Source: a phage. From it: 64,000 nucleotides of DNA. The stretch is taken from assembly GCA_014740375.1 (NCBI GenBank), contig GCA_014740375.1_3041.1, one strand, 5' to 3'. This document shows, one piece after another, positions 44,171 to 58,240 of the stretch. Both the position numbers and the translations under genes were made by a program. The notes under the pieces are model-generated. The model was not told where the DNA came from, searched no databases, and worked only from the letters and a program-made list of their open reading frames with translations. Within the stretch, counting starts at the first letter, position 1. The number at the start of each line of letters is the position of its first letter.

Positions 44171-45088
44171 TCAAAATTCATTAATGCTATTAGTTAATTT
44201 AGAAAGACCCGCTTTTACAAAATATGAATAAATTTTGCCACGCGGTGGTAATTTATATGAATTATAGTAATTCACAATGTTTGAAGCAATATTATCAGGA
44301 ATATAATCAAAATCAATTAGAACTAGATTTTCTTTATAACGATTATATTCAGATTCTGTGAGAAGCACCTTAGCTTGCTCACGGTCATTAGCAATAGCTT
44401 CAACGATTGAAGTTTTCATTGAAGGAGTTCGTTCACCTTCAACTTTGGTAAACCAAAAGTCAGATCGTACTTTAACTGAAGCAACGTTATCCTTTTTGTC
44501 GCCTTTAAGGATTTTAGTCATACAGTCAATTTCAGCAGAACCGCTTTTAATTTTAACCCATTTCTTGTGCATCGGCGACCATTGCTTAACATTTGGGTAT
44601 TTGTGAAGCTGTGTAAAGTCACCATCCGATGAAATGATTAAAATCTTGTGTCCTTCTAAAGAGAACTTTTTAACAAGAACAGCAATGTGGTCATCTGCTT
44701 CATACTTATCAATATCCATAACAATGTATGGCATATAAGCTTTCAATTCATCTATAACTTTATGGCTGGATTCAAAATAACCTTCCCAGTCCCAAGTAGA
44801 TTCTTCTCGTGCTTTTCCACGGTTTTTCTTGTAATAGTAAGCAAAATCACGACGCCAGTATCCAGATTTCGCATTATCAATACACAGTACAATTTTAGTG
44901 TATCCAAGCGTTTTTGCTTTTTTAACATTAAACTTAATTGAGTTCAATATCAAATGACGAACCATTGATAAATTAATTTTTTCTTTATCTGGGAAGTTTA
45001 CCAGAGCAGTTGAAAGCGCAATTTGACTAAAGTCAATGAAGCAAATTCCTTCTTTGTAATCTTCATCCAGCATCATTTCTAAATCCAT
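44171..45088 (-). CDS. rnh: RNase H (5'-3' exonuclease / flap endonuclease)
   Basis: 305 aa from MDLEMML; FEN-family acidic residues. Confidence 0.88.
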   Translation of the reverse strand: MDLEMMLDEDYKEGICFIDFSQIALSTALVNFPDKEKINLSMVRHLILNSIKFNVKKAKTLGYTKIVLCIDNAKSGYWRRDFAYYYKKNRGKAREESTWDWEGYFESSHKVIDELKAYMPYIVMDIDKYEADDHIAVLVKKFSLEGHKILIISSDGDFTQLHKYPNVKQWSPMHKKWVKIKSGSAEIDCMTKILKGDKKDNVASVKVRSDFWFTKVEGERTPSMKTSIVEAIANDREQAKVLLTESEYNRYKENLVLIDFDYIPDNIASNIVNYYNSYKLPPRGKIYSYFVKAGLSKLTNSINEF

Positions 45089-45117
45089 ATGAACCTCGTT
45101 CAATTAGTGAGATTTCT

Positions 45118-45147
45118 ATTATATACCATCCAAATCTTAAAGTAAAC
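45118..45147 (-). promoter_or_regulatory. Early promoter for rnh
   Basis: Minus strand GTTTAC, 18 bp, TATAAT, about 30 bp upstream of rnh ATG; divergent from the gene 34 late promoter. Confidence 0.5.
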
Positions 45148-45150
45148 AAG

Positions 45151-45158
45151 TATAAATA
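45151..45158 (+). promoter_or_regulatory. Late promoter (TATAAATA) for gene 34
   Basis: Exact TATAAATA 35 bp upstream of gene 34 ATG with GGAG Shine-Dalgarno. Confidence 0.65.
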
Positions 45159-45192
45159 CTTATTATTGAAAACACAATAGGAGCCCGGGAGA

Positions 45193-48100
45193 ATGGCCGA
45201 GATTAAAAGAAAGTTCAGAGCAGAAGATGGTCTGGACGCAGGTGGTGATAAAATAATCAACGTAGCTTTAGCTGATCGTACCGTAGGAACTGACGGTGTT
45301 AACGTTGATTACTTAATTCAAGAAAACACAGTTCAACAATATGATCCAACTCGTGGATATTTAAAAGATTTTGTAATCATTTATGATAACCGCTTTTGGG
45401 CTGCTATAAATGATATTCCAAAACCAGCAGGAGCTTTTAATAGCGGACGCTGGAGAGCATTACGTACAGATGCTAACTGGATTACGGTTTCATCTGGTTC
45501 ATATCAATTAAAATCTGGTGAAGCAATTTCGGTTAACACTGCAGCTGGAAATGACATTACGTTTACTTTACCGTCTTCTCCAATTGATGGTGATACTATC
45601 GTTCTCCAAGATATTGGAGGAAAACCTGGAGTTAACCAAGTTTTAATTGTAGCTCCAGTGCAAAGTATTGTAAACTTTAGAGGTGAACAGGTACGTTCAG
45701 TACTAATGACTCATCCAAAGTCACAGCTAGTTTTAATTTTTAGTAATCGTCTGTGGCAAATGTATGTTGCTGATTATAGTAGAGAAGCTGTAATTGTAAC
45801 ACCAGCGAATACTTATCAAGCGCAATCAAATGATTTTATCGTACGTAGATTTACTTCTGCTGCACCAATTAATGTTAAACTTCCAAGATTTGCTAATCAT
45901 GGCGATATTATTAATTTCGTTGATTTAGATAAACTGAATCCACTTTATCATACAATTGTTACTACATACGATGAAACGACTTCAGTACAAGAAGTTGGAA
46001 CTCATTCCATTGAAGGCCGTACATCGATTGACGGTTTCTTGATGTTTGATGATAATGAGAAATTGTGGAGATTGTTTGACGGTGACAGTAAAGCGCGTTT
46101 ACGCATTATAACGACTAATTCTAATATTCGTCCAAATGAAGAAGTCATGGTATTTGGTGCGAATAACGGAACAACTCAGACAATTGAACTTCAGCTTCCA
46201 ACTAATATTTCTGTTGGTGATACTGTTAAAATTTCCATGAATTACATGAGAAAAGGACAAACAGTTAAAATCAAAGCTGCCGGTGAAGATAAAATTGCTT
46301 CTTCAGTTCAATTACTGCAATTCCCAAAACGCTCAGAATATCCGCCTGAAGCTGAGTGGGTTACAGTTCAAGAATTAGTTTTTAATGGTGAAACTAATTA
46401 TGTTCCAGTTCTAGAGCTTGCATATATTGAAGATTCTGATGGAAAATACTGGGTTGTACAGCAAAATGTTCCAACCGTAGAAAGAGTAGATTCTTTAAAT
46501 GATTCTACTAGAGCAAGATTAGGCGTAATTGCTTTAGCTACACAAGCTCAAGCTAATGCCGATTTAGAAAATTCTCCACAAAAAGAATTAGCAATTACTC
46601 CAGAAACGTTAGCTAATCGTACTGCTACTGAAACTCGCAGAGGTATTGCAAGAATAGCAACTACTGCTCAAGTGAATCAGAACACCACATTCTCTTTTGC
46701 TGATGATATTATCATCACTCCTAAAAAGCTGAATGAAAGAACTGCTACAGAAACTCGCAGAGGTGTCGCAGAAATTGCTACGCAACAGGAAACTAATACA
46801 GGTACTGATGATACAACCATCATTACTCCTAAAAAGCTTCAAGCTCGTCAAGGTTCTGAATCATTATCTGGTATTGTAACTTTTGTATCTACTGCAGGTG
46901 CTACTCCAGCTTCTAGCCGTGAATTAAATGGTACGAATGTTTATAATAAAAACACTAATAATTTAGTTGTTTCGCCAAAAGCTTTGGATCAGTATAAAGC
47001 TACGCCTACTCAACAGGGTGCAGTAATTTTAGCAGTTGAAAGTGAAGTAATTGCTGGACAAAGTCAGCAAGGATGGGCAAATGCTGTTGTAACGCCAGAA
47101 ACGTTACATAAAAAGACATCAACTGATGGAAGAATTGGTTTAATTGAAATTGCTACGCAAAGTGAAGTTAATACAGGAACTGATTATACTCGTGCAGTCA
47201 CTCCTAAAACTTTAAATGACCGTAGAGCAACTGAAAGTTTAAGTGGTATAGCTGAAATTGCTACACAAGTTGAATTCGACGCAGGCGTCGACGATACTCG
47301 TATCTCTACACCATTAAAAATTAAAACCAGATTTAATAGTACTGATCGTACTTCTGTTGTTGCTCTATCTGGATTAGTTGAATCAGGAACTCTCTGGGAC
47401 CATTATACCCTTAATATTCTTGAAGCAAATGAGACACAGCGTGGTACACTTCGTGTAGCTACACAGGTTGAAGCTGCTGCAGGAACATTAGATAATGTTT
47501 TAATAACTCCTAAAAAGCTTTTAGGTACTAAATCTACTGAAGCACAGGAAGGTGTTATTAAAGTTGCAACTCAGTCTGAAACTGTGACTGGAACATCAGC
47601 AAATACTGCTGTATCTCCAAAAAATTTAAAATGGATTGTGCAGAGTGAACCTACCTGGGCAGCTACTACTGCGATAAGAGGTTTTGTTAAAACTTCATCT
47701 GGTTCAATTACATTCGTTGGTAATGATACAGTCGGTTCTACCCAAGATTTAGAACTGTATGAGAAAAATAGCTATGCAGTATCACCATATGAATTAAACC
47801 GTGTATTAGCAAATTATTTGCCGTTAAAAGCAAAAGCTGTAGATAGTAATTTATTGGATGGTCTAGATTCATCTCAGTTCATTCGTAGGGATATTGCACA
47901 GACGGTTAATGGTTCACTAACCTTAACCCAACAAACGAATCTGAGTGCCCCTCTTGTATCATCTAGTACTGCTACGTTTGGTGGTTCAGTTTCGGCAAAT
48001 AGTACATTAACTATTTCTAATACTGGAACAGCAACTCGTCTGATTTTTGAAAAAGGACCTCAAACTGGAACTAACCCAGCACAGACGATGACTATCAGAG

Positions 48101-49062
48101 TATGGGGAAATCAGTTTGGTGGCGGATCAGATACAACACGTTCTACTGTATTTGAAGTTGGTGATGAAACGTCTAATCATTTTTATTCTCAACGTAATAA
48201 AGATGGGAATATAGCGTTTAGCATTAATGGTACTGTAATGCCAATAAACATTAATGCTTCCGGTTTGATGAATGTGAATGGCGTTGCAACATTCGGTCGT
48301 TCAGTTACAGCCAATGGCGAATTCATTAGCAAGTCTGCAAATGCTTTCAGAGCAATTAATGGTGATTACGGATTCTTTATTCGCAATGATGCTGCTAACA
48401 CCTATTTTATGCTCACTGCATCGGGTGATCAGACTGGCGGATTTAATGGATTACGTCCTTTAGCTATTAATAATGCATCTGGTCAAGTAACGATCGGTGA
48501 AAGCTTAATCATTGCCAAAGGTGCTACTATAAATTCAGGTGGTTTAACTGTTAACTCGAGAATTCGTTCACAGGGCACTAAAACATCTGATTTATATACC
48601 CGCGTGCCAACATCTGATACTGTAGGATTCTGGTCAATTGACATTAATGATTCAGCCACTTATAATCAGTTCCCAGGTTATTTTAAAATGGTTGAAAAAA
48701 CTAATGAAGTGACTGGACTTCCATACTTAGAACGCGGTGAAGAAGTTAAATCTCCTGGTACATTGACTCAGTTTGGTAACACACTTGATTCGCTTTACCA
48801 AGATTGGATTACTTATCCAACGACGCCAGAAGCGCGTACCACTCGCTGGACACGTACATGGCAGAAAACCAAAAACTCTTGGTCAAGTTTTGTTCAGGTA
48901 TTTGACGGAGGTAACCCTCCACAACCATCTGATATCGGTGCTTTACCATCTGATAATGCCACAATGGGTAATCTTACTATTCGTGATTTCTTGCGAATTG
49001 GTAATGTTCGCATTATTCCTGACCCAGTGAATAAAACTGTTAAATTTGAATGGGTTGAATAA
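45193..49062 (+). CDS. 34: Long tail fibre proximal subunit gp34
   Basis: 1289 aa; internal repeats of ITPKKL ... ATE ... G ... IAT. Confidence 0.93.
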   Translation: MAEIKRKFRAEDGLDAGGDKIINVALADRTVGTDGVNVDYLIQENTVQQYDPTRGYLKDFVIIYDNRFWAAINDIPKPAGAFNSGRWRALRTDANWITVSSGSYQLKSGEAISVNTAAGNDITFTLPSSPIDGDTIVLQDIGGKPGVNQVLIVAPVQSIVNFRGEQVRSVLMTHPKSQLVLIFSNRLWQMYVADYSREAVIVTPANTYQAQSNDFIVRRFTSAAPINVKLPRFANHGDIINFVDLDKLNPLYHTIVTTYDETTSVQEVGTHSIEGRTSIDGFLMFDDNEKLWRLFDGDSKARLRIITTNSNIRPNEEVMVFGANNGTTQTIELQLPTNISVGDTVKISMNYMRKGQTVKIKAAGEDKIASSVQLLQFPKRSEYPPEAEWVTVQELVFNGETNYVPVLELAYIEDSDGKYWVVQQNVPTVERVDSLNDSTRARLGVIALATQAQANADLENSPQKELAITPETLANRTATETRRGIARIATTAQVNQNTTFSFADDIIITPKKLNERTATETRRGVAEIATQQETNTGTDDTTIITPKKLQARQGSESLSGIVTFVSTAGATPASSRELNGTNVYNKNTNNLVVSPKALDQYKATPTQQGAVILAVESEVIAGQSQQGWANAVVTPETLHKKTSTDGRIGLIEIATQSEVNTGTDYTRAVTPKTLNDRRATESLSGIAEIATQVEFDAGVDDTRISTPLKIKTRFNSTDRTSVVALSGLVESGTLWDHYTLNILEANETQRGTLRVATQVEAAAGTLDNVLITPKKLLGTKSTEAQEGVIKVATQSETVTGTSANTAVSPKNLKWIVQSEPTWAATTAIRGFVKTSSGSITFVGNDTVGSTQDLELYEKNSYAVSPYELNRVLANYLPLKAKAVDSNLLDGLDSSQFIRRDIAQTVNGSLTLTQQTNLSAPLVSSSTATFGGSVSANSTLTISNTGTATRLIFEKGPQTGTNPAQTMTIRVWGNQFGGGSDTTRSTVFEVGDETSNHFYSQRNKDGNIAFSINGTVMPININASGLMNVNGVATFGRSVTANGEFISKSANAFRAINGDYGFFIRNDAANTYFMLTASGDQTGGFNGLRPLAINNASGQVTIGESLIIAKGATINSGGLTVNSRIRSQGTKTSDLYTRVPTSDTVGFWSIDINDSATYNQFPGYFKMVEKTNEVTGLPYLERGEEVKSPGTLTQFGNTLDSLYQDWITYPTTPEARTTRWTRTWQKTKNSWSSFVQVFDGGNPPQPSDIGALPSDNATMGNLTIRDFLRIGNVRIIPDPVNKTVKFEWVE
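46560..47640 (+). repeat. Degenerate in-frame repeats within gene 34
   Basis: At least six copies of ~40-aa unit (x-TP-x-x-L-x-x-R-x-ATE-x-x-x-G-x-x-x-IAT-x-x-E) seen in translation. Confidence 0.6.
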
Positions 49063-49070
49063 GAGGTATT

Positions 49071-50186
49071 ATGGAAAAATTTATGGCAGAGTTTGGACAA
49101 GGATATGTCCAAACGCCATTTTTATCGGAAAGTAATTCAGTAAGATACAAAATAAGTATAGCGGGTTCTTGCCCGCTTTCTACTGCAGGACCATATGTTA
49201 AATTTCAAGATAATCCCGTAGGAAGTCAAACATTTAGCGCAGGCCTTCATTTAAGAGTTTTTGACCCTTCCACCGGAGCATTAGTTGATAGTAAGTCATA
49301 TGCTTTTTCGACTTCAAATGATACTACATCAGCTGCTTTTGTTAGTTTCATGAATTCTTTGACGAATAATCGAATTGTCGCTATATTAACTAGTGGAAAG
49401 GTTAATTTTCCTCCTGAAGTAGTATCTTGGTTAAGAACAGCAGGAACGTCTGCTTTTCCATCTGACTCTGTATTGTCAAGATTCGACGTATCATATGCTG
49501 CTTTTTATACTTCTTCTAAAAGAGCTATTGCATTAGAGCATGTTAAACTGAGTAATAGAAAAAGCACAGATGATTATCAAACTATTTTAGATGTTGTATT
49601 TGACAGTTTAGAAGACGTCGGAGCTACCGGGTTTCCAAGAAGAACGTATGAAAGCGTTGAGCAATTTATGTCAGCGGTTGGTGGAACTAATAACGAAATT
49701 GCAAGATTACCAACTTCAGCTGCTATAAGTAAACTCTCTGATTATAATTTAATTCCTGGTGACGTTCTTTATCTTAAAGCCCAGTTATATGCCGATGCTG
49801 ATTTACTTGCGCTTGGAACTACAAATATTTCAATTCGTTTTTATAATGCGTCGAATGGATATATTTCCTCGACACAAGCTGAGTTTACTGGACAGGCTGG
49901 GTCTTGGGAATTAAAGGAAGACTATGTAGTTGTTCCAGAAAATGCAGTTGGATTTACGATATATGCACAGAGAACTGCTCAAGCGGGACAAGGCGGTATG
50001 CGAAATTTAAGCTTTTCTGAAGTATCAAGAAATGGCGGAATTTCAAAACCTGCTGAATTTGGCGTCAATGGTATTCGCGTTAATTATATTTGTGAATCTG
50101 CTTCACCTCCGGATATAATGGTACTTCCTACGCAAGCATCGTCTAAAACTGGTAAAGTGTTTGGGCAAGAATTTAGAGAAGTATAA
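49071..50186 (+). CDS. 35: Long tail fibre hinge protein gp35
   Basis: 371 aa; T4 position. Confidence 0.88.
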   Translation: MEKFMAEFGQGYVQTPFLSESNSVRYKISIAGSCPLSTAGPYVKFQDNPVGSQTFSAGLHLRVFDPSTGALVDSKSYAFSTSNDTTSAAFVSFMNSLTNNRIVAILTSGKVNFPPEVVSWLRTAGTSAFPSDSVLSRFDVSYAAFYTSSKRAIALEHVKLSNRKSTDDYQTILDVVFDSLEDVGATGFPRRTYESVEQFMSAVGGTNNEIARLPTSAAISKLSDYNLIPGDVLYLKAQLYADADLLALGTTNISIRFYNASNGYISSTQAEFTGQAGSWELKEDYVVVPENAVGFTIYAQRTAQAGQGGMRNLSFSEVSRNGGISKPAEFGVNGIRVNYICESASPPDIMVLPTQASSKTGKVFGQEFREV

Positions 50187-50190
50187 ATTG

Positions 50191-50210
50191 AGGGAGCCTT
50201 CGGGTTCCCT
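50191..50210 (+). terminator. Terminator-like hairpin after gene 35
   Basis: AGGGAGCC-TTCG-GGTTCCCT followed by TTTTCTTT. Confidence 0.55.
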
Positions 50211-50217
50211 TTTTCTT

Positions 50218-50225
50218 TATAAATA
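50218..50225 (+). promoter_or_regulatory. Late promoter (TATAAATA) for gene 36
   Basis: Exact TATAAATA 24 bp upstream of gene 36 ATG. Confidence 0.65.
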
Positions 50226-50248
50226 CTATTAAAATAAAGGGGCATACA

Positions 50249-50911
50249 ATGGCTGATTTAAAAGTAGGTTCAACAACCGGAGGCTCTGTCATTTGGCATC
50301 AAGGAAATTTTCCATTGAATCCAGCCGGTGACGATGTACTCTATAAATCATTTAAAATATATTCAGAATATAATAAACCGCAAGCTGCTGATAACGATTT
50401 CGTTTCTAAAGCTAATGGTGGTACTTACGCCGCGACTGTTCGATTTAATGGAGGAGTACATGTTCCTACTATAGGTAGTAGTCAACAGTGCGGTGTTTAT
50501 CCAGGTAACGGTGATGCAGCTACCTTTGCTATGGCAAATATTGACATCGTTTCGTGGAATGGTATTGGTTTTAAATCATCACAAGGTTCAGCAGACCGAA
50601 CTGTTGTAATTAATGCACGTAATGGTGATATTAGTACAAAAGGCGTTATGACAGCAGTAGGTCAAATAAGAAGTAATGCAGTTGCTCCTGTAGCAGCAAA
50701 TGACCTTACTCGAAAAGATTATGTTGATGGAGCAATAAATACTGTTACGGCAAATGCGGATTCTAGAGTTTTCCGTAAAGGAGACACTATGACTGGAAAC
50801 TTAACCGCACCAAACTTTTTCTCGCAGAATCCTGCATCTCAACCTTCACACGTTCCACGATTTGACCAAATCGTAATTAAGGATTCTGTTCAAGATTTCG
50901 GCTATTATTAA
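50249..50911 (+). CDS. 36: Long tail fibre distal connector gp36
   Basis: 220 aa; T4 position. Confidence 0.88.
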   Translation: MADLKVGSTTGGSVIWHQGNFPLNPAGDDVLYKSFKIYSEYNKPQAADNDFVSKANGGTYAATVRFNGGVHVPTIGSSQQCGVYPGNGDAATFAMANIDIVSWNGIGFKSSQGSADRTVVINARNGDISTKGVMTAVGQIRSNAVAPVAANDLTRKDYVDGAINTVTANADSRVFRKGDTMTGNLTAPNFFSQNPASQPSHVPRFDQIVIKDSVQDFGYY

Positions 50912-50919
50912 GAGGACTT

Positions 50920-53900
50920 ATGGCTACTTTAAAACAAATACAATTTAAAAGAAGCAAAACCGCAGGTGCACGTCCTGCTGCTTCAGTATTAGCCGAAGGT
51001 GAATTGGCTATAAACTTAAAAGATAGAACAATTTTTACTAAAGATGATTCAGGAAATATCATTGATCTAGGTATTGCTAAAGGCGGTCAAATTGATGGAA
51101 ATGTAACTATTGATGGAACTTTACGCGTCAATGGACCAATAAACAACTTTGGAAATTTTTCTACAAGTGGTACTATTACGGCAAGTAATATTGTTTCTGC
51201 TACAGTATTCAGATCAACATCCGGTTCATTTTATACAAGAGCAATAAATGATACTGCAAATGCCCATCTTTGGTTTGAAAATACAAATGGCTCAGAACGT
51301 GGTGTTTTATATTCAAAACCGCAGTCTGAAAATGAAGGCGTAATTACAATGCGTGTTCGTCAAGGAACCGCTGCGGGAGCTCAAAATTCAGAATTTCATT
51401 TCATTTCTACTGATGGCGGTATCTTCCAGGCACGTAAGTTAACTGCTTTAACTTCTATTAGTACACCAACTATTAGTGTTAATTTAATTAATCATGATTC
51501 TAAATCATTTGGACAATACGATTCGCAATCTTTGGTTAACTATGTTTATCCTGGAACCGGTGAAACAAATGGTGTAAACTATCTTCGTAAAGTTCGAGCT
51601 AAATCAGGTGGAACTATTTACCATGAAATTTGTACAGCTCAGACTGGGCTAGCTGATGAAGTTTCTTGGTGGACTGGTAATATACCGTTATTTAAACTAT
51701 ACGGTATTCGTAACGACGGTAGAATGATTATCCGCAATAGCTTGGCCATTGGTACTGTGACTGAAGGATACCCGTCAAGCGATTATGGAAATACCGTGGT
51801 AATGGGAGATAGGTATTTAGCTCTTGGCGATAATGCTTCTGGACTTAAATGGGTTCGTACTGGCGTTATTGACTTAATGGCTAACGGTATTTCTGCGGCG
51901 ACTATTATTAATAATGGTATTAATAGTACTAAAAAATTGATGGTTGGTTATAGCCGTGATTCCGGCTCTACTTGGGATTTCCCAAATAACAACCAGGCAA
52001 TGTTTACTGCGCGTACCGATATTGATGGTAATAATAACGGCGATGGTCAGACTCATATTGGTTATAGCAGCAATTCTAAAATGTATCACTATTTCCGTGG
52101 CACGGGTCGTATGGCTGTCGGAATGGCTGAAGGTTTAATTGTTGAGCCGGGTATTTTAGATATTAAAACTGGGTCCAATAGAGTTGCTATTAGAGCAGAT
52201 GGTACATTTGACTCAACCCAACGTATTTCAATGCGTACTGGGTTATTTTTATCAGGTGATGACAATACCAATGCTTTGTCATTTAAAGCGCCTACAGGTG
52301 TTGACGGGACAAAAACCATTAACTGGGATGCAGGCACTCGTAATGGTCAGAATAAAAATACTGTAACCATTAAAGCGTGGGGTAACTCATTTAACTCAAC
52401 TCCAGGTAATAGAGAAACTGTATTCGAAGTTTCAGATTCACAAGGTTATTATTTCTACGCTCAACGTACTAATCCTGCGTCAGGTCAAACAGTAGGTCCG
52501 GTTAACTTTAAATTTAACGGAACTGTTGAAACAGACCATATCATAGGCCTTGGAAATATAAGTGCCTCCGGTACAGGTTCTTTTGGTGGCAATGTTACCA
52601 TGTCTAACGGTTTGTTTGTCCAAGGTGGTTCTTCTATTACTGGACAAGTTAAAATCGGCGGAACTGCTGATGCATTAAGAATTTGGAATGCTGAATATGG
52701 TGCTATTTTCCGTCGCTCAGAAAGTAATCTTTATATTATCCCGACTCCTAAAGGTGCCGGAGAATCAGGCGGTATAAGTAATCTTAGACCATTGATAATA
52801 GAACTGAACACCGGCACAGTTAAAATGTCGCATGATGTTCATTTAGGAGATTCTGGATCTGGTACAGGATTATTACAAGTAAGTAATAGTCTTAAAACTA
52901 TTAAAATGATATGTCCAGTAACTATTAATGAACGTAATGCAGCGCTTACTTTAGATTCTCCTTCATCTTCTTCTGCTAATTATTTGCAGGGTTCTAAAGC
53001 TGGAACTAGATCGTGGTATGTTGGTCTTGGTGGTGCTGGAAATGATTTATCACTTTATAGCCAATCTTATGGACATGGTCTTGTTATAAGTGATAATTTC
53101 ACGTCAATCACTAAACCTCTTAAAGTCGGAAATGCCCAACTAGGAACTGACGGTAATATTACCAACGGTTCTGGTAATTTTGCTAACTTAAACACTACGC
53201 TAAATCGTAAAGTTAATTCTGGATTTATTACTTATGGAGCAACTGCTGGATGGTATAAGTTTGCAACAGTAACAATGCCACAATCCACTTCTACGGTCTT
53301 CTTTAAAATAGCCGGTGGTTCTGGATTTAATAGTGGATTATTCACACAATGCAATATTGCTGAAATTGTTTTACGTACTAGCAATGAAAGACCTGCTGAC
53401 TTAAATGCTGTATTATACACAAGAACAATTGCAGCTGCATTTAAAAATATTGCAGTTAATAACGTCTCTGGAGATACATATGACATTTATGTTTATGCCG
53501 GAACATATTGCAATCAATTAACTTGTGAATGGTCATGTACCGAAAATGCTACTGTTAGCGTTATTGGTATTAACTCATCGACCCAATCACCTGTGGATGC
53601 TCTTCCAGATACAGCAGTTGATGGGCAAGTTGCTAATGTTCTTAATAACTTGGTTGATCGTGGTAAAGTTAAGCGTTATGAAGCTGATTCTGAAATAGCT
53701 ATCAATAGTCAAACTGGTATTCGTATTAGAAGCAATGGCGATAAAACTGGTTCTGTTGCTACAATGCTACGAAATGATGGCGGTAGTTTTTATATTCTAT
53801 TTACAGATAAAAATGCCACCGATGGCGCAGCAACCGTTAATGGTGATTGGAATAGTAAACGTCCTTTTGCAATTAACTTAACAACCGGCGAAGTGCTAAT

Positions 53901-54648
53901 GAATAACGGCATAGCTGTTCGCAGCGCAGCTTTATTCTATAATAGTATAAATGTCAAAGATAATGGTTCTATTAACTTTGATAAGTCTGGTGCTAACCCA
54001 AGAAATATGAGAATATTTCATGCTGGCGATGCTTCTCGTGGTAACCGTATTGAAATTGCAGATGAAACTAACTATATTGCTTACTTTGAAAAAGCTCCAG
54101 GTGGAGCTAACCGCTTTGTAGTAAATAATGCTACTGTAGCTGGTGTTAATCAAATGAATTCATTTGGTATTAACATCAATAACGCACTTGGTGGAAATAG
54201 TATAGCATTTGGTGATAATGATACTGGAATTAAACAATCCGGTGACGGACTTCTTGATATTATTACTAACGCCGCACGCCGAATGAGATTCCAGACGGGT
54301 GACACTTATTCTGACATGAATATAAATGCCCCAAACGTTTATATTCGTTCTGATATTCGTTTGAAATCTAATTTCAGACCTATTGAAAATGCTCTTGAAA
54401 AGGTTGAACAGCTTGATGGTTTAATCTATGATAAAGCTGACTATATAGGTGGTGAAATTGTTCAGACTGAAGCGGGTATTGTGGCTCAAACACTGCAAGA
54501 TGTTTTACCAGAAGCAGTTCGTGAAGTTGAAGATATTAAAGGTAATAAAATACTCACTGTTTCTTCTCAATCCCAGATTGCTCTTCTAGTTGAAGCTGTG
54601 AAAACACTTTCTGCTCGTGTAAAAGAACTTGAATCTAAACTTATGTAA
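50920..54648 (+). CDS. 37: Long tail fibre distal subunit gp37 with C-terminal intramolecular-chaperone-like domain
   Basis: 1242 aa; C-terminal ~100 aa (SDIRLKSNF ... LIYDK ... ending in coiled coil) resembles self-cleaving chaperone domains of tail fibres. Confidence 0.88.
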   Translation: MATLKQIQFKRSKTAGARPAASVLAEGELAINLKDRTIFTKDDSGNIIDLGIAKGGQIDGNVTIDGTLRVNGPINNFGNFSTSGTITASNIVSATVFRSTSGSFYTRAINDTANAHLWFENTNGSERGVLYSKPQSENEGVITMRVRQGTAAGAQNSEFHFISTDGGIFQARKLTALTSISTPTISVNLINHDSKSFGQYDSQSLVNYVYPGTGETNGVNYLRKVRAKSGGTIYHEICTAQTGLADEVSWWTGNIPLFKLYGIRNDGRMIIRNSLAIGTVTEGYPSSDYGNTVVMGDRYLALGDNASGLKWVRTGVIDLMANGISAATIINNGINSTKKLMVGYSRDSGSTWDFPNNNQAMFTARTDIDGNNNGDGQTHIGYSSNSKMYHYFRGTGRMAVGMAEGLIVEPGILDIKTGSNRVAIRADGTFDSTQRISMRTGLFLSGDDNTNALSFKAPTGVDGTKTINWDAGTRNGQNKNTVTIKAWGNSFNSTPGNRETVFEVSDSQGYYFYAQRTNPASGQTVGPVNFKFNGTVETDHIIGLGNISASGTGSFGGNVTMSNGLFVQGGSSITGQVKIGGTADALRIWNAEYGAIFRRSESNLYIIPTPKGAGESGGISNLRPLIIELNTGTVKMSHDVHLGDSGSGTGLLQVSNSLKTIKMICPVTINERNAALTLDSPSSSSANYLQGSKAGTRSWYVGLGGAGNDLSLYSQSYGHGLVISDNFTSITKPLKVGNAQLGTDGNITNGSGNFANLNTTLNRKVNSGFITYGATAGWYKFATVTMPQSTSTVFFKIAGGSGFNSGLFTQCNIAEIVLRTSNERPADLNAVLYTRTIAAAFKNIAVNNVSGDTYDIYVYAGTYCNQLTCEWSCTENATVSVIGINSSTQSPVDALPDTAVDGQVANVLNNLVDRGKVKRYEADSEIAINSQTGIRIRSNGDKTGSVATMLRNDGGSFYILFTDKNATDGAATVNGDWNSKRPFAINLTTGEVLMNNGIAVRSAALFYNSINVKDNGSINFDKSGANPRNMRIFHAGDASRGNRIEIADETNYIAYFEKAPGGANRFVVNNATVAGVNQMNSFGININNALGGNSIAFGDNDTGIKQSGDGLLDIITNAARRMRFQTGDTYSDMNINAPNVYIRSDIRLKSNFRPIENALEKVEQLDGLIYDKADYIGGEIVQTEAGIVAQTLQDVLPEAVREVEDIKGNKILTVSSQSQIALLVEAVKTLSARVKELESKLM

Positions 54649-54649
54649 A

Positions 54650-54667
54650 AGAGGGCTTCGGCCCTCT
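54650..54667 (+). promoter_or_regulatory. Intercistronic GC hairpin (UUCG loop) between genes 37 and 38
   Basis: AGAGGGC-TTCG-GCCCTCT. Confidence 0.5.
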
Positions 54668-54678
54668 AAGGATTTTTA

Positions 54679-55470
54679 ATGGCAATTGTAGGTGTTCCTG
54701 GCTGGATTGGCGAATCTGCCGTGAATGAAACTGGACAACGTTGGATGGATGCTGCGATGAAAGCTGTTCGTGTTTCAGTTCCCGGCTGGATGAGCTCAAT
54801 GGCTGGACAATCTAAAGAAGTATATTATAGTGTTGGTGCTAGCAATTCTTACAATAAAGACACATTGATAAATTGGATAAAAGCCCAAGGCAGTACTCCT
54901 GTTGTTATTACTATTACAGGAAATATTGTTTCTCAATCTACTGGTGTTCCATGCTTAGATTTTCCTAGCTCATTAACTAATGCATATGTTACCTTAAATA
55001 TTAATAGTGGGGTTCATGTATTAGGTCGGGGAGGAAATGGCGGAAGTAACTCTGCTGGTGGAGCAGGAGGAACTGCAATAAATAACGGAATTGGAACTCG
55101 TTTAAGAATAAACAATAATGGTATTATTGGTGGCGGTGGCGGTGGCGGCGCTGGTGCTAGATATCATCCTTTCCCCCAAATGGATATGATATTTGGTGGC
55201 GGCGGAGGTCGTCCATTTGGTGCAGCAGGTCGAGCAGGCGGCGGCGCTGCGGCAGCATCTGCCGCTACAATTTCTGCTCCTGGTAAAGGTACTGTTTCTG
55301 GGGTTCACCATGGAGGAGATGGTGGAGATTTGGGGGCTGCGGGCAAATCTTCATATATTCAAGGTGGTACTGGAGGAACTGTTCACTCGGGTGGCGCAGC
55401 AGGTAAAGCTGTTACTGGTAATGCTCCAACTTGGACTAAAGTTGGTACAATATATGGTGCAAGAGTATAA
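54679..55470 (+). CDS. 38: T2-type tail fibre tip adhesin gp38 with glycine-rich motifs
   Basis: 263 aa; several Gly-rich motifs (GGGGGGGAGA, GGGGGRPFG, GGDGGDLGAAG) separated by variable segments; T4 gp38 is a 183-aa chaperone. Confidence 0.85.
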   Translation: MAIVGVPGWIGESAVNETGQRWMDAAMKAVRVSVPGWMSSMAGQSKEVYYSVGASNSYNKDTLINWIKAQGSTPVVITITGNIVSQSTGVPCLDFPSSLTNAYVTLNINSGVHVLGRGGNGGSNSAGGAGGTAINNGIGTRLRINNNGIIGGGGGGGAGARYHPFPQMDMIFGGGGGRPFGAAGRAGGGAAAASAATISAPGKGTVSGVHHGGDGGDLGAAGKSSYIQGGTGGTVHSGGAAGKAVTGNAPTWTKVGTIYGARV

Positions 55471-55475
55471 TTTTG

Positions 55476-55483
55476 AATAAATA
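55476..55483 (+). promoter_or_regulatory. Possible late promoter variant (AATAAATA) for t
   Basis: One mismatch to TATAAATA, 19 bp upstream of t ATG with AAGGAGG Shine-Dalgarno. Confidence 0.3.
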
Positions 55484-55501
55484 TCCTTAAAAGGAGGGTC
55501 T

Positions 55502-56158
55502 ATGGCAGCACCTAGAATATCATTTTCGCCCTCTGATATTCTGTTTGGTGTTCTAGATCGCTTGTTCAAAGATAACGCTACCGGGAAGGTTCTTGCTTCC
55601 CGGGTAGCTGTCGTAATTCTTTTGTTTATAATGGCGATTGTTTGGTATAGGGGAGATAGTTTCTTTGAGTACTATAAGCAATCAAAGTATGAAACATACA
55701 GTGAAATTATTGAAAAGGAAAGAAATGCACGCTTTGAATCTGTCGCCCTGGAACAACTCCAGATAGTTCATATATCATCTGAGGCAGACTTTAGTGCGGT
55801 GTATTCTTTCCGCCCTAAAAACTTAAACTATTTTGTTGATATTATAGCATACGAAGGAAGATTACCTTCAACAATAACTGAAAAATCACTTGGAGGATAT
55901 CCTGTTGATAAAACTATGGATGAATATACAGTTCATTTAAATGGACGTCATTATTATTCCAACTCAAAATTTGCTTTTTTACCAACTAAAAAGCCTACTC
56001 CCGAAATAAACTACATGTACAGTTGTCCATATTTTAATTTGGATAATATCTATGCTGGAACGATAACCATGTACTGGTATAGAAATGATCATATAAGTAA
56101 TGACCGCCTTGAATCAATATGTGCTCAGGCGGCCAGAATATTAGGAAGGGCTAAATAA
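55502..56158 (+). CDS. t: Holin T
   Basis: 218 aa; single N-terminal transmembrane helix and large periplasmic domain. Confidence 0.92.
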   Translation: MAAPRISFSPSDILFGVLDRLFKDNATGKVLASRVAVVILLFIMAIVWYRGDSFFEYYKQSKYETYSEIIEKERNARFESVALEQLQIVHISSEADFSAVYSFRPKNLNYFVDIIAYEGRLPSTITEKSLGGYPVDKTMDEYTVHLNGRHYYSNSKFAFLPTKKPTPEINYMYSCPYFNLDNIYAGTITMYWYRNDHISNDRLESICAQAARILGRAK

Positions 56159-56431
56159 TTATTTGTTCGTATACATCTCTAGATATCGATATACACCCTC
56201 AAAACCCTCGTTGAATTCGTCGATGAGGGTTTTCTTATCTTCTTGAGTTAATTCAGAAACAATTTTACGGAATGAATTCTGATTTAATTTTCTACCTTCA
56301 TGCGTTACTCCAATCTCATTCAGAAATGCAATAAAATTAGCACGATTTTCAACAATATCTTCTCTGGAAAATTTAATCAAAATAGACGCAACAGTAATAA
56401 TTTCACGAACTGTATCAATGTTTTTATTCAT
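56159..56431 (-). CDS. asiA: Anti-sigma-70 factor AsiA
   Basis: 90 aa; MNKNIDTVREIIT N-terminus. Confidence 0.92.
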   Translation of the reverse strand: MNKNIDTVREIITVASILIKFSREDIVENRANFIAFLNEIGVTHEGRKLNQNSFRKIVSELTQEDKKTLIDEFNEGFEGVYRYLEMYTNK

Positions 56432-56443
56432 TAACTATACCAC

Positions 56444-56596
56444 TCAATTAGTTGACTTTGTTATAATATCATCAGACGCTTGATTTGTAAACTGGTCTGT
56501 GTTATTTTCTTCAAAAATTTTTTCTACGAATTCCTTGAACGACTCGCGTTCCTGAGCTACATTATGCTCGATTACCTTTTCAAGATTATGACTCAT
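56444..56596 (-). CDS. Small acidic ORF (50 aa)
   Basis: ATG overlaps arn stop (ATGA); contains the asiA promoter; not in ORF track (<60 aa). Confidence 0.3.
   Translation of the reverse strand: MSHNLEKVIEHNVAQERESFKEFVEKIFEENNTDQFTNQASDDIITKSTN
56463..56492 (-). promoter_or_regulatory. Early promoter for asiA
   Basis: Minus strand GTTTAC, 18 bp, TATTAT, about 30 bp upstream of asiA ATG. Confidence 0.5.
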
Positions 56597-56871
56597 TCGA
56601 AATAATCTTCAATTTCGTAATCATGGACGTAAATCATTATAGTTTTTAATACATCATCAATACTTTTTCCTGGAGCTGGAATTACGTAAAAATATCCTGC
56701 TTTTGAGAGGTCTTTATAAGTTCCAATCAAGAAATCATTATTCTCAAGATGTAGTTCTTCAACTAATTCATTAACAATTGAATGGTATAGGTTTGGTAGA
56801 AACTTATATAGCTTTTCTAGAATATCAATTTTGATTGTGTATTGAACCACAGACTGAGAATCAATAATCAT
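56593..56871 (-). CDS. arn: Arn (anti-restriction nuclease, McrBC inhibitor)
   Basis: 92 aa acidic protein at T4 arn position next to asiA. Confidence 0.75.
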   Translation of the reverse strand: MIIDSQSVVQYTIKIDILEKLYKFLPNLYHSIVNELVEELHLENNDFLIGTYKDLSKAGYFYVIPAPGKSIDDVLKTIMIYVHDYEIEDYFE

Positions 56872-56980
56872 AGACCTTCCCCTTATGTTTCTGTTTGCGA
56901 TTAGATTCTTTAAACGCTTTCTTCTTATCCTTATGAACAGAAGCTTTATTAAAATTATGTTTTGCGACTAAATTGTTCAT
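56861..56980 (-). CDS. Possible small basic ORF (39 aa)
   Basis: ATG-initiated Lys-rich ORF ending within the first codons of arn; weak Shine-Dalgarno. Confidence 0.2.
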   Translation of the reverse strand: MNNLVAKHNFNKASVHKDKKKAFKESNRKQKHKGKVYDY

Positions 56981-57173
56981 AGTGCTGAATTACCTCTCTC
57001 AAACATTTGCATGTGAATGAAAACTTTTTAGCTACACCACATTCAAATATATGTTCTCTTAAATCACGTGTATCAATATATCCCATCTCAACAATAAAAT
57101 GCCGTATTAGATTTTTATCTTTATCATTGAGAGAATTAAAATAATCAGATTTTGAATTAATTTCCCTGGCCAA
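56955..57173 (-). CDS. Hypothetical protein
   Basis: 72-aa ORF. Confidence 0.45.
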   Translation of the reverse strand: MAREINSKSDYFNSLNDKDKNLIRHFIVEMGYIDTRDLREHIFECGVAKKFSFTCKCLREVIQHYEQFSRKT

Positions 57174-57453
57174 ATTGAATCACCTTCAGTTGACGTTTTA
57201 GTTCTTTTATCATCTCTTCGTTCATTGCAATATAAAGATCGCGTAGAGCAGGTTTTAGCATTCCATTTACCGGAGAACTAAATGGGCATACATAATCTTT
57301 TCCTACGAGCTTTTTAGTGAATTCCATATCACAGAACTTAAATCCAGGCTCATTGGTATAAATTCCCCAATTAGTTGACATCATTTTATTAGCATATTCC
57401 AGTGCCTTAATTTGATTCGTAATTCCATCAATTTGAAACTCTTTAATATTCAT
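57157..57453 (-). CDS. Hypothetical protein
   Basis: 98-aa ORF. Confidence 0.5.
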   Translation of the reverse strand: MNIKEFQIDGITNQIKALEYANKMMSTNWGIYTNEPGFKFCDMEFTKKLVGKDYVCPFSSPVNGMLKPALRDLYIAMNEEMIKELKRQLKVIQFGQGN

Positions 57454-57914
57454 TAGTAAAGGTCCTCAGAGTAAAGTTCTTTTTCACTACCACCACGTTC
57501 AATACGTACTTGTCCAGCGTAAGTTGCAATAATCATTGCTTCTTCACGTGTCCAATAATTACTATATTGGTCAATAAACCCTTGGTCATCATCACAAACT
57601 TGCTGAGTAACTAATTGAGGTTTAACTACATCTAAAACTTCTGCCATATCTTTAGAATAATGACGAGCACCTGGAATAATAAGAGTTCGTCCATCTTTTA
57701 ATTTAAAACGGTTGGCTGCACAGACAATTCGTCGTTGATACTTTTGGTTTTCATCCCAATATGCAGGCTGCCAACAGATTTCAGGAACTTCTTTCAGAAT
57801 ATCTTCTTCTGTGCATTTATAACCATGCGCTTTAAATTTTTCAACAAGACTTTCTGGAGTTTCACGAGATAAAGGAACATTCAGCATTTTTAAACGATTA
57901 ATAAATGGATTCAT
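57453..57914 (-). CDS. Hypothetical protein (153 aa)
   Basis: ORF with overlapping stop-start coupling. Confidence 0.55.
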
Positions 57915-58240
57915 TTAAACCATCCTTTAATACGTTGCCACAAAGTTTTCTGTTGAGCTTTGTTAACACCAATTGAACGAATAACCGGTTGAGATTCCTG
58001 GAATTCTTTATAATCGGCAAGGTAAATTTCGTAAGCTGCATCTGTAAAGGAACTTATCGCTGCCATGAAATTATTGCGAATACCTACTGGAGCATCTTTA
58101 CTTTCACGAATAATCATGTATTTACCAGTCTTAATCTTTACAATAGTTCCAAGATAAGCTCCATGGTACCAGATGTCCCAACCCTCTTGAGTAGGTTCTG
58201 CGCAACGACGAAGTTCATTAACAATTTCTAACTTGTTCAT
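57911..58240 (-). CDS. Hypothetical protein (motA.1 position)
   Basis: 109-aa ORF directly downstream of motA. Confidence 0.55.

Follow-up and report, generated by a model that had tools for sequence, protein, structure and literature searches.

Gene 38 of a T-Even (Tequatrovirus) Phage as a T2/T6/S16-Type Receptor-Recognizing Adhesin

The Long-Tail-Fiber Locus

The window, that is, the whole 64,000-nucleotide stretch of phage DNA analyzed here, carries on its plus strand an ORF running from ATG to TAA at 54679–55470. This is gene 38 (g38), and the first-pass annotation, made from the sequence alone, had correctly placed there a 263-aa product with several glycine motifs split by variable segments. 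The gene starts 30 nt past the stop codon of g37, and a gap of 31 nt separates its end from the T holin gene (Table 1). The order g37-g38-t is common to T2, T4, S16, and Bas43, and the longer arrangement g36-g37-g38-t is as in T2, S16, and Bas43. Since the genes for gp34 (45193–49062), gp35, and gp36 (Pfam Phage_T4_gp36) lie 5' of g37, the locus represents the long-tail-fiber operon of a T-even phage. A megablast search with 45000–58000 matched Tequatrovirus phages at 93 to 96% identity and 85 to 95% query coverage. Scans of the window for tRNA genes and Rfam families returned no match.

A terminator-like hairpin capped by a UUCG tetraloop takes up most of the g37-g38 spacer. It resembles the C(UUCG)G hairpins of high stability that have been described in T4 intergenic regions, and it may stabilize the mRNA 5' of it or bring about partial termination ahead of g38. 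Another terminator-like hairpin, of 14 bp, lies at 56201–56233 (plus strand), 43 nt 3' of the t stop codon and inside the 3' end of a convergent 90-aa ORF (56159–56431, minus strand) in the position of asiA; it may serve as a terminator for the t transcript that is embedded in an opposing gene. Two ORFs in other frames overlap g38 (55193–55480, plus strand, 95 aa; 55102–55311, minus strand, 69 aa) and are most likely artefacts, because they coincide with the stop-poor, GC-rich DNA of the glycine motifs. The proximal hinge connector gp35 (49071–50186, plus strand) matches PF15711 (ILEI, "Interleukin-like EMT inducer") over residues 58–127 with 36 bits and E = 1e-8, above the gathering score. 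T4 gp35 gives this match too (35.9 bits), and it is therefore a trait of the gp35 family that is not peculiar to this phage.

Table 1. Coordinates of genes, protein domains, and sequence features at the g37-g38-t locus
Feature	Position	Strand	Details and evidence
Gene 37, distal long-tail-fiber subunit, mosaic variant	50920..54648	+	1242 aa; PHROG 1699, E = 0; Pfam gp37_trimer, Gp34_trimer, Peptidase_S74
C-terminal intramolecular-chaperone/self-cleaving domain of gp37	54349..54648	+	aa 1144-1242; predicted cleavage before Ser1144 (between VYIR and SDIRLK), dyad Ser1144/Lys1149
7-bp GC-rich hairpin, UUCG tetraloop, then U5	54650..54667	+	AGAGGGC-UUCG-GCCCUCU; terminator-like site, present in MFE fold
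Gene 38, receptor-recognizing adhesin, T2/T6/S16 type (very probable)	54679..55470	+	263 aa; ORF, Pfam PF05268 and PF21721, PDB 6F45_D, EGI3119564.1
N-terminal attachment domain of gp38, predicted docking on gp37 trimer tip	54679..54804	+	aa 1-42; Trp9, Trp22, Trp37; Pfam Gp38_N, residues 1-42
Start of central beta-helix domain of gp38	54817..55023	+	aa 47-115; AlphaFold2 strands E48-115, pLDDT 95-97; Foldseek TM 0.75-0.88 to 6F45_D/9V85_C
Specificity region of gp38, ten glycine-rich motifs (GRMs) alternating with hypervariable segments (HVSs); predicted polyglycine-II sandwich core	55024..55404	+	aa 116-242; conservation/entropy map of 111 homologs, list of invariant Gly
GRMs 1-5	55024-55041, 55057-55071, 55129-55152, 55195-55221, 55228-55245	+	aa 116-121, 127-131, 151-158, 173-181, 184-189
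GRMs 6-10	55282-55290, 55312-55326, 55333-55344, 55363-55377, 55390-55404	+	aa 202-204, 212-216, 219-222, 229-233, 238-242
Only perfect tandem repeat, (GGTGGC)x3.3	55129..55148	+	20 nt; Tandem Repeats Finder; encodes Gly7 run of third GRM
Largest hypervariable segment, GARYHPFPQMDMIF	55153..55194	+	aa 159-172; top entropy in family; predicted beta-hairpin loop, T6 (Tsx) class
Gene t (holin)	55502..56158	+	218 aa; Pfam Phage_holin_T, E = 4e-117; fixes g37-g38-t synteny

Family, Fold, and Architecture of gp38 and Its Partner gp37

The product of g38 matches two Pfam models, PF05268 (GP38; E = 5.9e-69, 232.7 bits with a cut-off of 25) over residues 47–263 and profile positions 1–218 of 218, and PF21721 (Gp38_N; E = 7.3e-18, 64.7 bits) over residues 1–42, as well as PHROG 2056, "tail fiber protein; host specificity" (E = 2e-101). 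Its only significant relatives by sequence in the PDB are two solved gp38 adhesins, 6F45_D (S16 gp38 in the gp37-gp38 tip complex; E = 2.7e-47) and 9V85 (receptor-binding domain of PP01 gp38; E = 1.3e-31). A monomer AlphaFold2 model of gp38, built on 48 homologs, reached a pLDDT of 87.9 and a pTM of 0.80. In a Foldseek search of the PDB with this model, 6F45_D (E = 2.7e-20) and 9V85_C (TM 0.88, rmsd 2.3 Å) were recovered with TM scores of 0.75 to 0.88, while the next match had an E value of 2.6. Judged by model and Foldseek comparison, gp38 is predicted to share the three-domain fold of 6F45_D, including the polyglycine-II sandwich. The solved gp38 proteins of S16 (PDB 6F45; Dunne et al. 2018) and PP01 (PDB 9V85; PMC12892980), which both bind OmpC and are about 42% identical to gp38 in the Foldseek alignments, consist of the same three domains as the model, i.e., a helical attachment domain, a beta-helix, and a polyglycine-II sandwich with ten GRMs. 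The loop past the long Gly run has 13 residues in the present protein versus about 8 in S16.

All tested defining features of the T2/T6/S16 adhesin family, at the level of both sequence and fold, were found in gp38. By analogy with these relatives, the protein would sit at the fiber tip of the virion and contact an outer-membrane receptor. T2 gp38 (FadL/OmpF) belongs to the same family with the same domain order; its first 27 residues are identical to those of our protein, and identity is about 75% in the N-terminal part (74% over residues 1–148). T6 gp38 (Tsx) also shares family and domain order and has a loop of the PFPQM class.

An identical protein, EGI3119564.1, is annotated in NCBI as "receptor-recognizing protein [Escherichia coli]." It sits on a 166,739-bp contig filed under E. 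coli, which suggests a complete T-even phage genome within a bacterial assembly. The 90%-identity cluster of gp38 has 81 members, among them the proteins of slur07, Geo, AV109, TadeuszReichstein/Kelasse, KIT06, and Kha5h. Several near-identical genes in GenBank are labeled "distal long tail fiber assembly catalyst" or "tail assembly protein"; these are mislabels carried over from T4 nomenclature.

In the attachment domain, Trp9, Trp22, and Trp37 are all present, and the first two are invariant among 48 homologs. Three apical Trp residues of S16 gp38 enter three pockets, related by symmetry, at the gp37 trimer base (PMC6851490), and the three Trp residues of the present gp38 may dock on gp37 in the same way. 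The monomer model has low pLDDT at residues 1–19, which fits a domain whose packing partner is gp37; the docking mode therefore rests on homology. Later rungs of the beta-helix are predicted to interleave with the glycine region. Glycine makes up 60 of the 263 residues, rising from 10% of residues 1–114 to 33% of residues 115–263. The ten GRMs read, in order, GRGGNG, GGAGG, GGGGGGGA, GGGGGRPFG, GRAGGG, GKG, GGDGG, GAAG, GGTGG, and GGAAG, and in S16 the corresponding ten motifs form polyglycine-II (PGII) helices (PMC6851490). In a family alignment of 111 sequences, the glycine motifs are invariant or nearly so, while the intervening stretches are highly variable, with entropy peaks at residues 159–172, 185–200, 205–211, 223–228, and 231–237; in the largest HVS, AlphaFold2 places strands at residues 160–165 and 168–173. 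This GRM/HVS architecture was described by Trojet et al. 2011 (PMC3157838), and published genetics shows that receptor choice is determined by the stretches between the glycine motifs (PMC3157838; bioRxiv 10.64898/2026.04.02.716166). The proposal that host range is set by the variable segments of gp38 thus agrees both with the concentration of variation between the motifs and with those genetic data.

The partner protein gp37 does end, as proposed at the outset, in a domain resembling a self-cleaving intramolecular chaperone. Residues 1144–1201 match Peptidase_S74 (PF13884, "Chaperone of endosialidase"; E = 1.2e-13, 51.5 bits with a cut-off of 22), and the sequence S1144-D-I-R-L-K1149, an SDxRxK or Ser-x4-Lys motif, opens the domain and starts a 99-residue tail. 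The motif and the 99-aa tail are also found in the gp37 proteins of T2 (where the motif is likewise SDIRLK), Bas43, UFV13, Geo, slur07, and KFS-EC3; S16 gp37 has SDRRIK with a 112-residue tail, and T4 gp37 lacks the motif. Over its last 242 residues, the protein can be aligned with S16 gp37 (6F45_A; E = 4e-10), which places SDIRLK opposite SDRRIK. The endosialidase of phage K1F and the L-shaped fiber protein pb1 of T5, both Peptidase_S74 proteins, share PF13884 and the Ser-x4-Lys arrangement of SDIRLK with the gp37 C terminus. In those two proteins the released tip is the receptor-binding surface itself, whereas here a separate adhesin would cap the tip. T2 gp37 is cleaved at its C terminus and then capped by gp38 (PMC3157838). 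By homology to T2 and S16, autoproteolysis would release a 99-aa fragment from the present gp37 as well, and gp37 and gp38 would assemble in a 3:1 stoichiometry.

Otherwise, gp37 stands out only as a new mosaic: among the gp37 proteins compared, the nearest, that of UFV13, reaches 79% identity at most. In a set of about 15 billion proteins, the present gp37 forms a 90%-identity cluster by itself, and it is 44 to 99 residues shorter than the gp37 proteins of phages with near-identical gp38; neither residues 645–733 nor those from about 995 to 1070 fall within any BLASTP alignment to T2, Bas43, or Geo. Such lone clustering is normal for the hyperplastic gene 37.

Allelic Variation, Mosaicism, and Base Composition of g38

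The closest gp38 relatives compared, those of Bas43, UFV13 (vB_EcoM-UFV13), vB_Eco_Geo, RB18, Kha5h, and slur07, fall in the same 90%-identity cluster with the same synteny and are 94.7 to 98.5% identical to our protein (92.8 to 96.1% in DNA). They differ from it by 4 to 14 substitutions, mostly located in the HVSs (R185, A196, H211, and D214), while their gp37 proteins are at most 79% identical. As 25 of the 31 codons that differ between g38 and its Bas43 counterpart are synonymous, gp38 is under purifying selection overall.

Some relatives are mosaic. KFS-EC3 is 92 to 98% identical to g38 over the first 300 nt and 100% identical over the last 120 nt, and the middle is mostly 47 to 72% identical, with a single 60-nt bin at 95%. 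The gene of slur07 displays the reverse pattern, in which the N-terminal block is divergent (82 to 88%) and the specificity half is near-identical. Recombination at g38 is thus well supported by sequence comparison, which agrees with the published view that places such exchanges in or near conserved motifs (PMC3157838).

Differences from all the closest relatives are densely clustered at codons 181–196 (55219–55266); 10 of these 16 codons differ from Bas43, versus 21 of the 247 codons elsewhere. Apart from R185 and A196, most of the differences are synonymous and affect the third position of four-fold degenerate Gly and Ala codons. A foreign origin of the patch was considered and rejected: ADUt and SA20RB carry it at 96 to 97% identity, and it therefore appears to represent ordinary allelic micro-mosaicism.

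GC content rises to 0.55–0.56 at 55150–55374, versus about 0.35–0.39 in the flanks and a window mean of 0.36. In the C-terminal half of gp38, GC amounts to 0.64, 0.68, and 0.20 at codon positions 1, 2, and 3, respectively. GRM codons have a GC content of 0.71, while the variable codons between them, at 0.39, equal those of the N-terminal domain (0.39). The high GC is confined to the conserved motifs and results from Gly (GGN) and Ala (GCN) codons; these values contradict the idea that GC-rich GGT/GGC repeat DNA harbors the variable segments.

Alternative Readings, Predicted Receptor, and Significance

A nonstructural chaperone of the T4 type, which aids gp37 trimerization and is not part of the virion, would occupy the same slot between g37 and t, and the "assembly catalyst" and "tail assembly protein" labels on near-identical genes point in that direction, albeit as a carry-over of T4 nomenclature. 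The likeness to T4 gp38 is nevertheless limited to gene name and position. The T4 protein (NP_049864) has 183 aa, no glycine motifs, and no Pfam family, while the present gp38 matches both adhesin models; BLASTP between the two gave E = 12, and the best tblastn match of T4 gp38 against the whole window had E = 6.9. T4 gp37, moreover, has its own receptor-binding tip, its C terminus being composed of Collar and fiber repeat without S74, whereas the present gp37 possesses S74, and the predicted fold of gp38 equals that of the solved adhesins. A T4-type identity is thus rejected at the level of sequence and fold and retains next to no probability. The first-pass annotation, which had called a T2-type adhesin and had named alignment with the T4 chaperone as its refutation, is borne out, and g38 very probably encodes a T2/T6/S16-type receptor-recognizing adhesin as the best explanation of the data. 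The same annotation had described the locus as prone to slippage and recombination, of which the latter is supported by the mosaic relatives, whereas evidence of the former is thin. Replication slippage in GGT/GGC repeats could be imagined as the main driver of host range, ahead of recombination and point mutation, given that the perfect (GGTGGC)x3.3 array encodes the Gly7 run and that the length of this run varies from 4 to 10 (mostly 7 to 9) across 106 homologs, with 4 or 5 residues in the second run; because run length differs across the family, occasional in-frame slippage is possible. We consider slippage as the main driver improbable, however. The array measures just 20 nt and is the sole notable one, since the further Tandem Repeats Finder rows are a period-12 reading of the same 55129–55148 array and a 20-nt period-9 array, and the remaining direct repeats are 15 to 19 nt long and imperfect (74 to 88% identical). 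The perfect array sits in a conserved structural motif outside the variable loops, which are of ordinary composition. The close relatives, all of 263 aa, differ by substitutions only, without indels, and the sharp identity breaks of the mosaics point to recombination, matching published crosses (PMC3157838). Given one 20-nt perfect array and a GC content that follows Gly and Ala codons, the notion that "GC-rich repeat DNA" acts here as a special substrate for mutation was rejected.

For the adhesin, Tsx is the likely receptor, as predicted from sequence relationships. In its specificity half, from the GRGG motif onward, gp38 shares 95.9% identity with Bas43 and 97.3% with UFV13, followed by T6 (60%), M1 (54%), T2 (52%), and S16 (46%). 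Bas43 (TadeuszReichstein) depends on Tsx and the LPS deep core (BASEL S5 table), and its longest HVS is identical to ours. With the motif that it has in common with YYSPFPQMRLTF of T6, the HVS RYHPFPQMDMIF falls into the T6 class, and the PFPQM loop is present. The prediction follows from these affinities because closely related gp38 sequences are reported to share a receptor (PMC12032242; bioRxiv 10.64898/2026.04.02.716166). Substitutions in the variable loops could instead have led to another receptor (OmpA, OmpF, FadL, or OmpW) or to dual specificity. Six substitutions separate gp38 from Bas43 (R185A, A196G, H211Y, D214N, Q228K, and A261S), the first five of them in the specificity half, and all of the differences from Bas43 (6/6) and from UFV13 (4/4) fall within residues 163–261. 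Single residues are known to switch or broaden receptor choice, as in RB68 gp38, where the HVS substitution Q206L switches the receptor from OmpF to OmpW (bioRxiv 10.64898/2026.04.02.716166), and in PST versus T6 (PMC3157838). Against this stand the near-identity of the specificity half to Bas43, the shared longest HVS and the T6-class loop, and published trees in which closely related gp38 proteins share a receptor (PMC12032242). Furthermore, H211 and D214 are also found in UFV13, and R185, A196, H211, and D214 all occur in the Logan homolog P0133; because its residues recur in this way, the allele is a circulating one rather than an odd mutant. A non-Tsx receptor is therefore unlikely. The residues R185, A196, H211, D214, and Q228 all lie within or beside hypervariable loops, and, combined with a gp37 lacking close relatives (at most 79% identity), they might give this phage a shifted or broadened specificity, for instance, recognition of a different Tsx loop variant or of an added second porin; we regard this as improbable.

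Taken together with the S16 and T2 systems, these data suggest the following mechanism. gp37 would trimerize with the aid of its own C-terminal S74 intramolecular-chaperone domain, which would then cut itself off before Ser1144 by means of the Ser1144/Lys1149 dyad. A single gp38 monomer would attach to the exposed trimer tip by its N-terminal helical domain, whose residues Trp9, Trp22, and Trp37 would fill three equivalent pockets. The ten GRMs would associate as polyglycine-II helices to form a rigid sandwich, from which the hypervariable segments would project as distal loops that touch an outer-membrane beta-barrel protein, most likely the nucleoside channel Tsx. Two processes would alter host range, namely point substitutions in the variable loops and recombination, the latter taking place at the DNA of the conserved glycine motifs and in its flanks and exchanging sets of loops between phages.

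The family of gp38, its structure, the GRM/HVS architecture, recombination, and the rules of receptor prediction have all been published, and the annotation as an adhesin is correct and textbook knowledge. It was established by Riede 1987, Drexler 1986 and 1989, and Tetart 1998 (as cited in PMC3157838 and PMC6851490), and further by Trojet 2011, Dunne 2018, and the work on PP01 gp38 and OmpC (PMC12892980). Accordingly, with the exact protein already named as receptor-recognizing in NCBI, the result adds no new biology. It does expose the "assembly catalyst" labels on close homologs as carry-overs, and it shows the annotator of such a genome which gene sets the primary receptor and, hence, where host range can be engineered.
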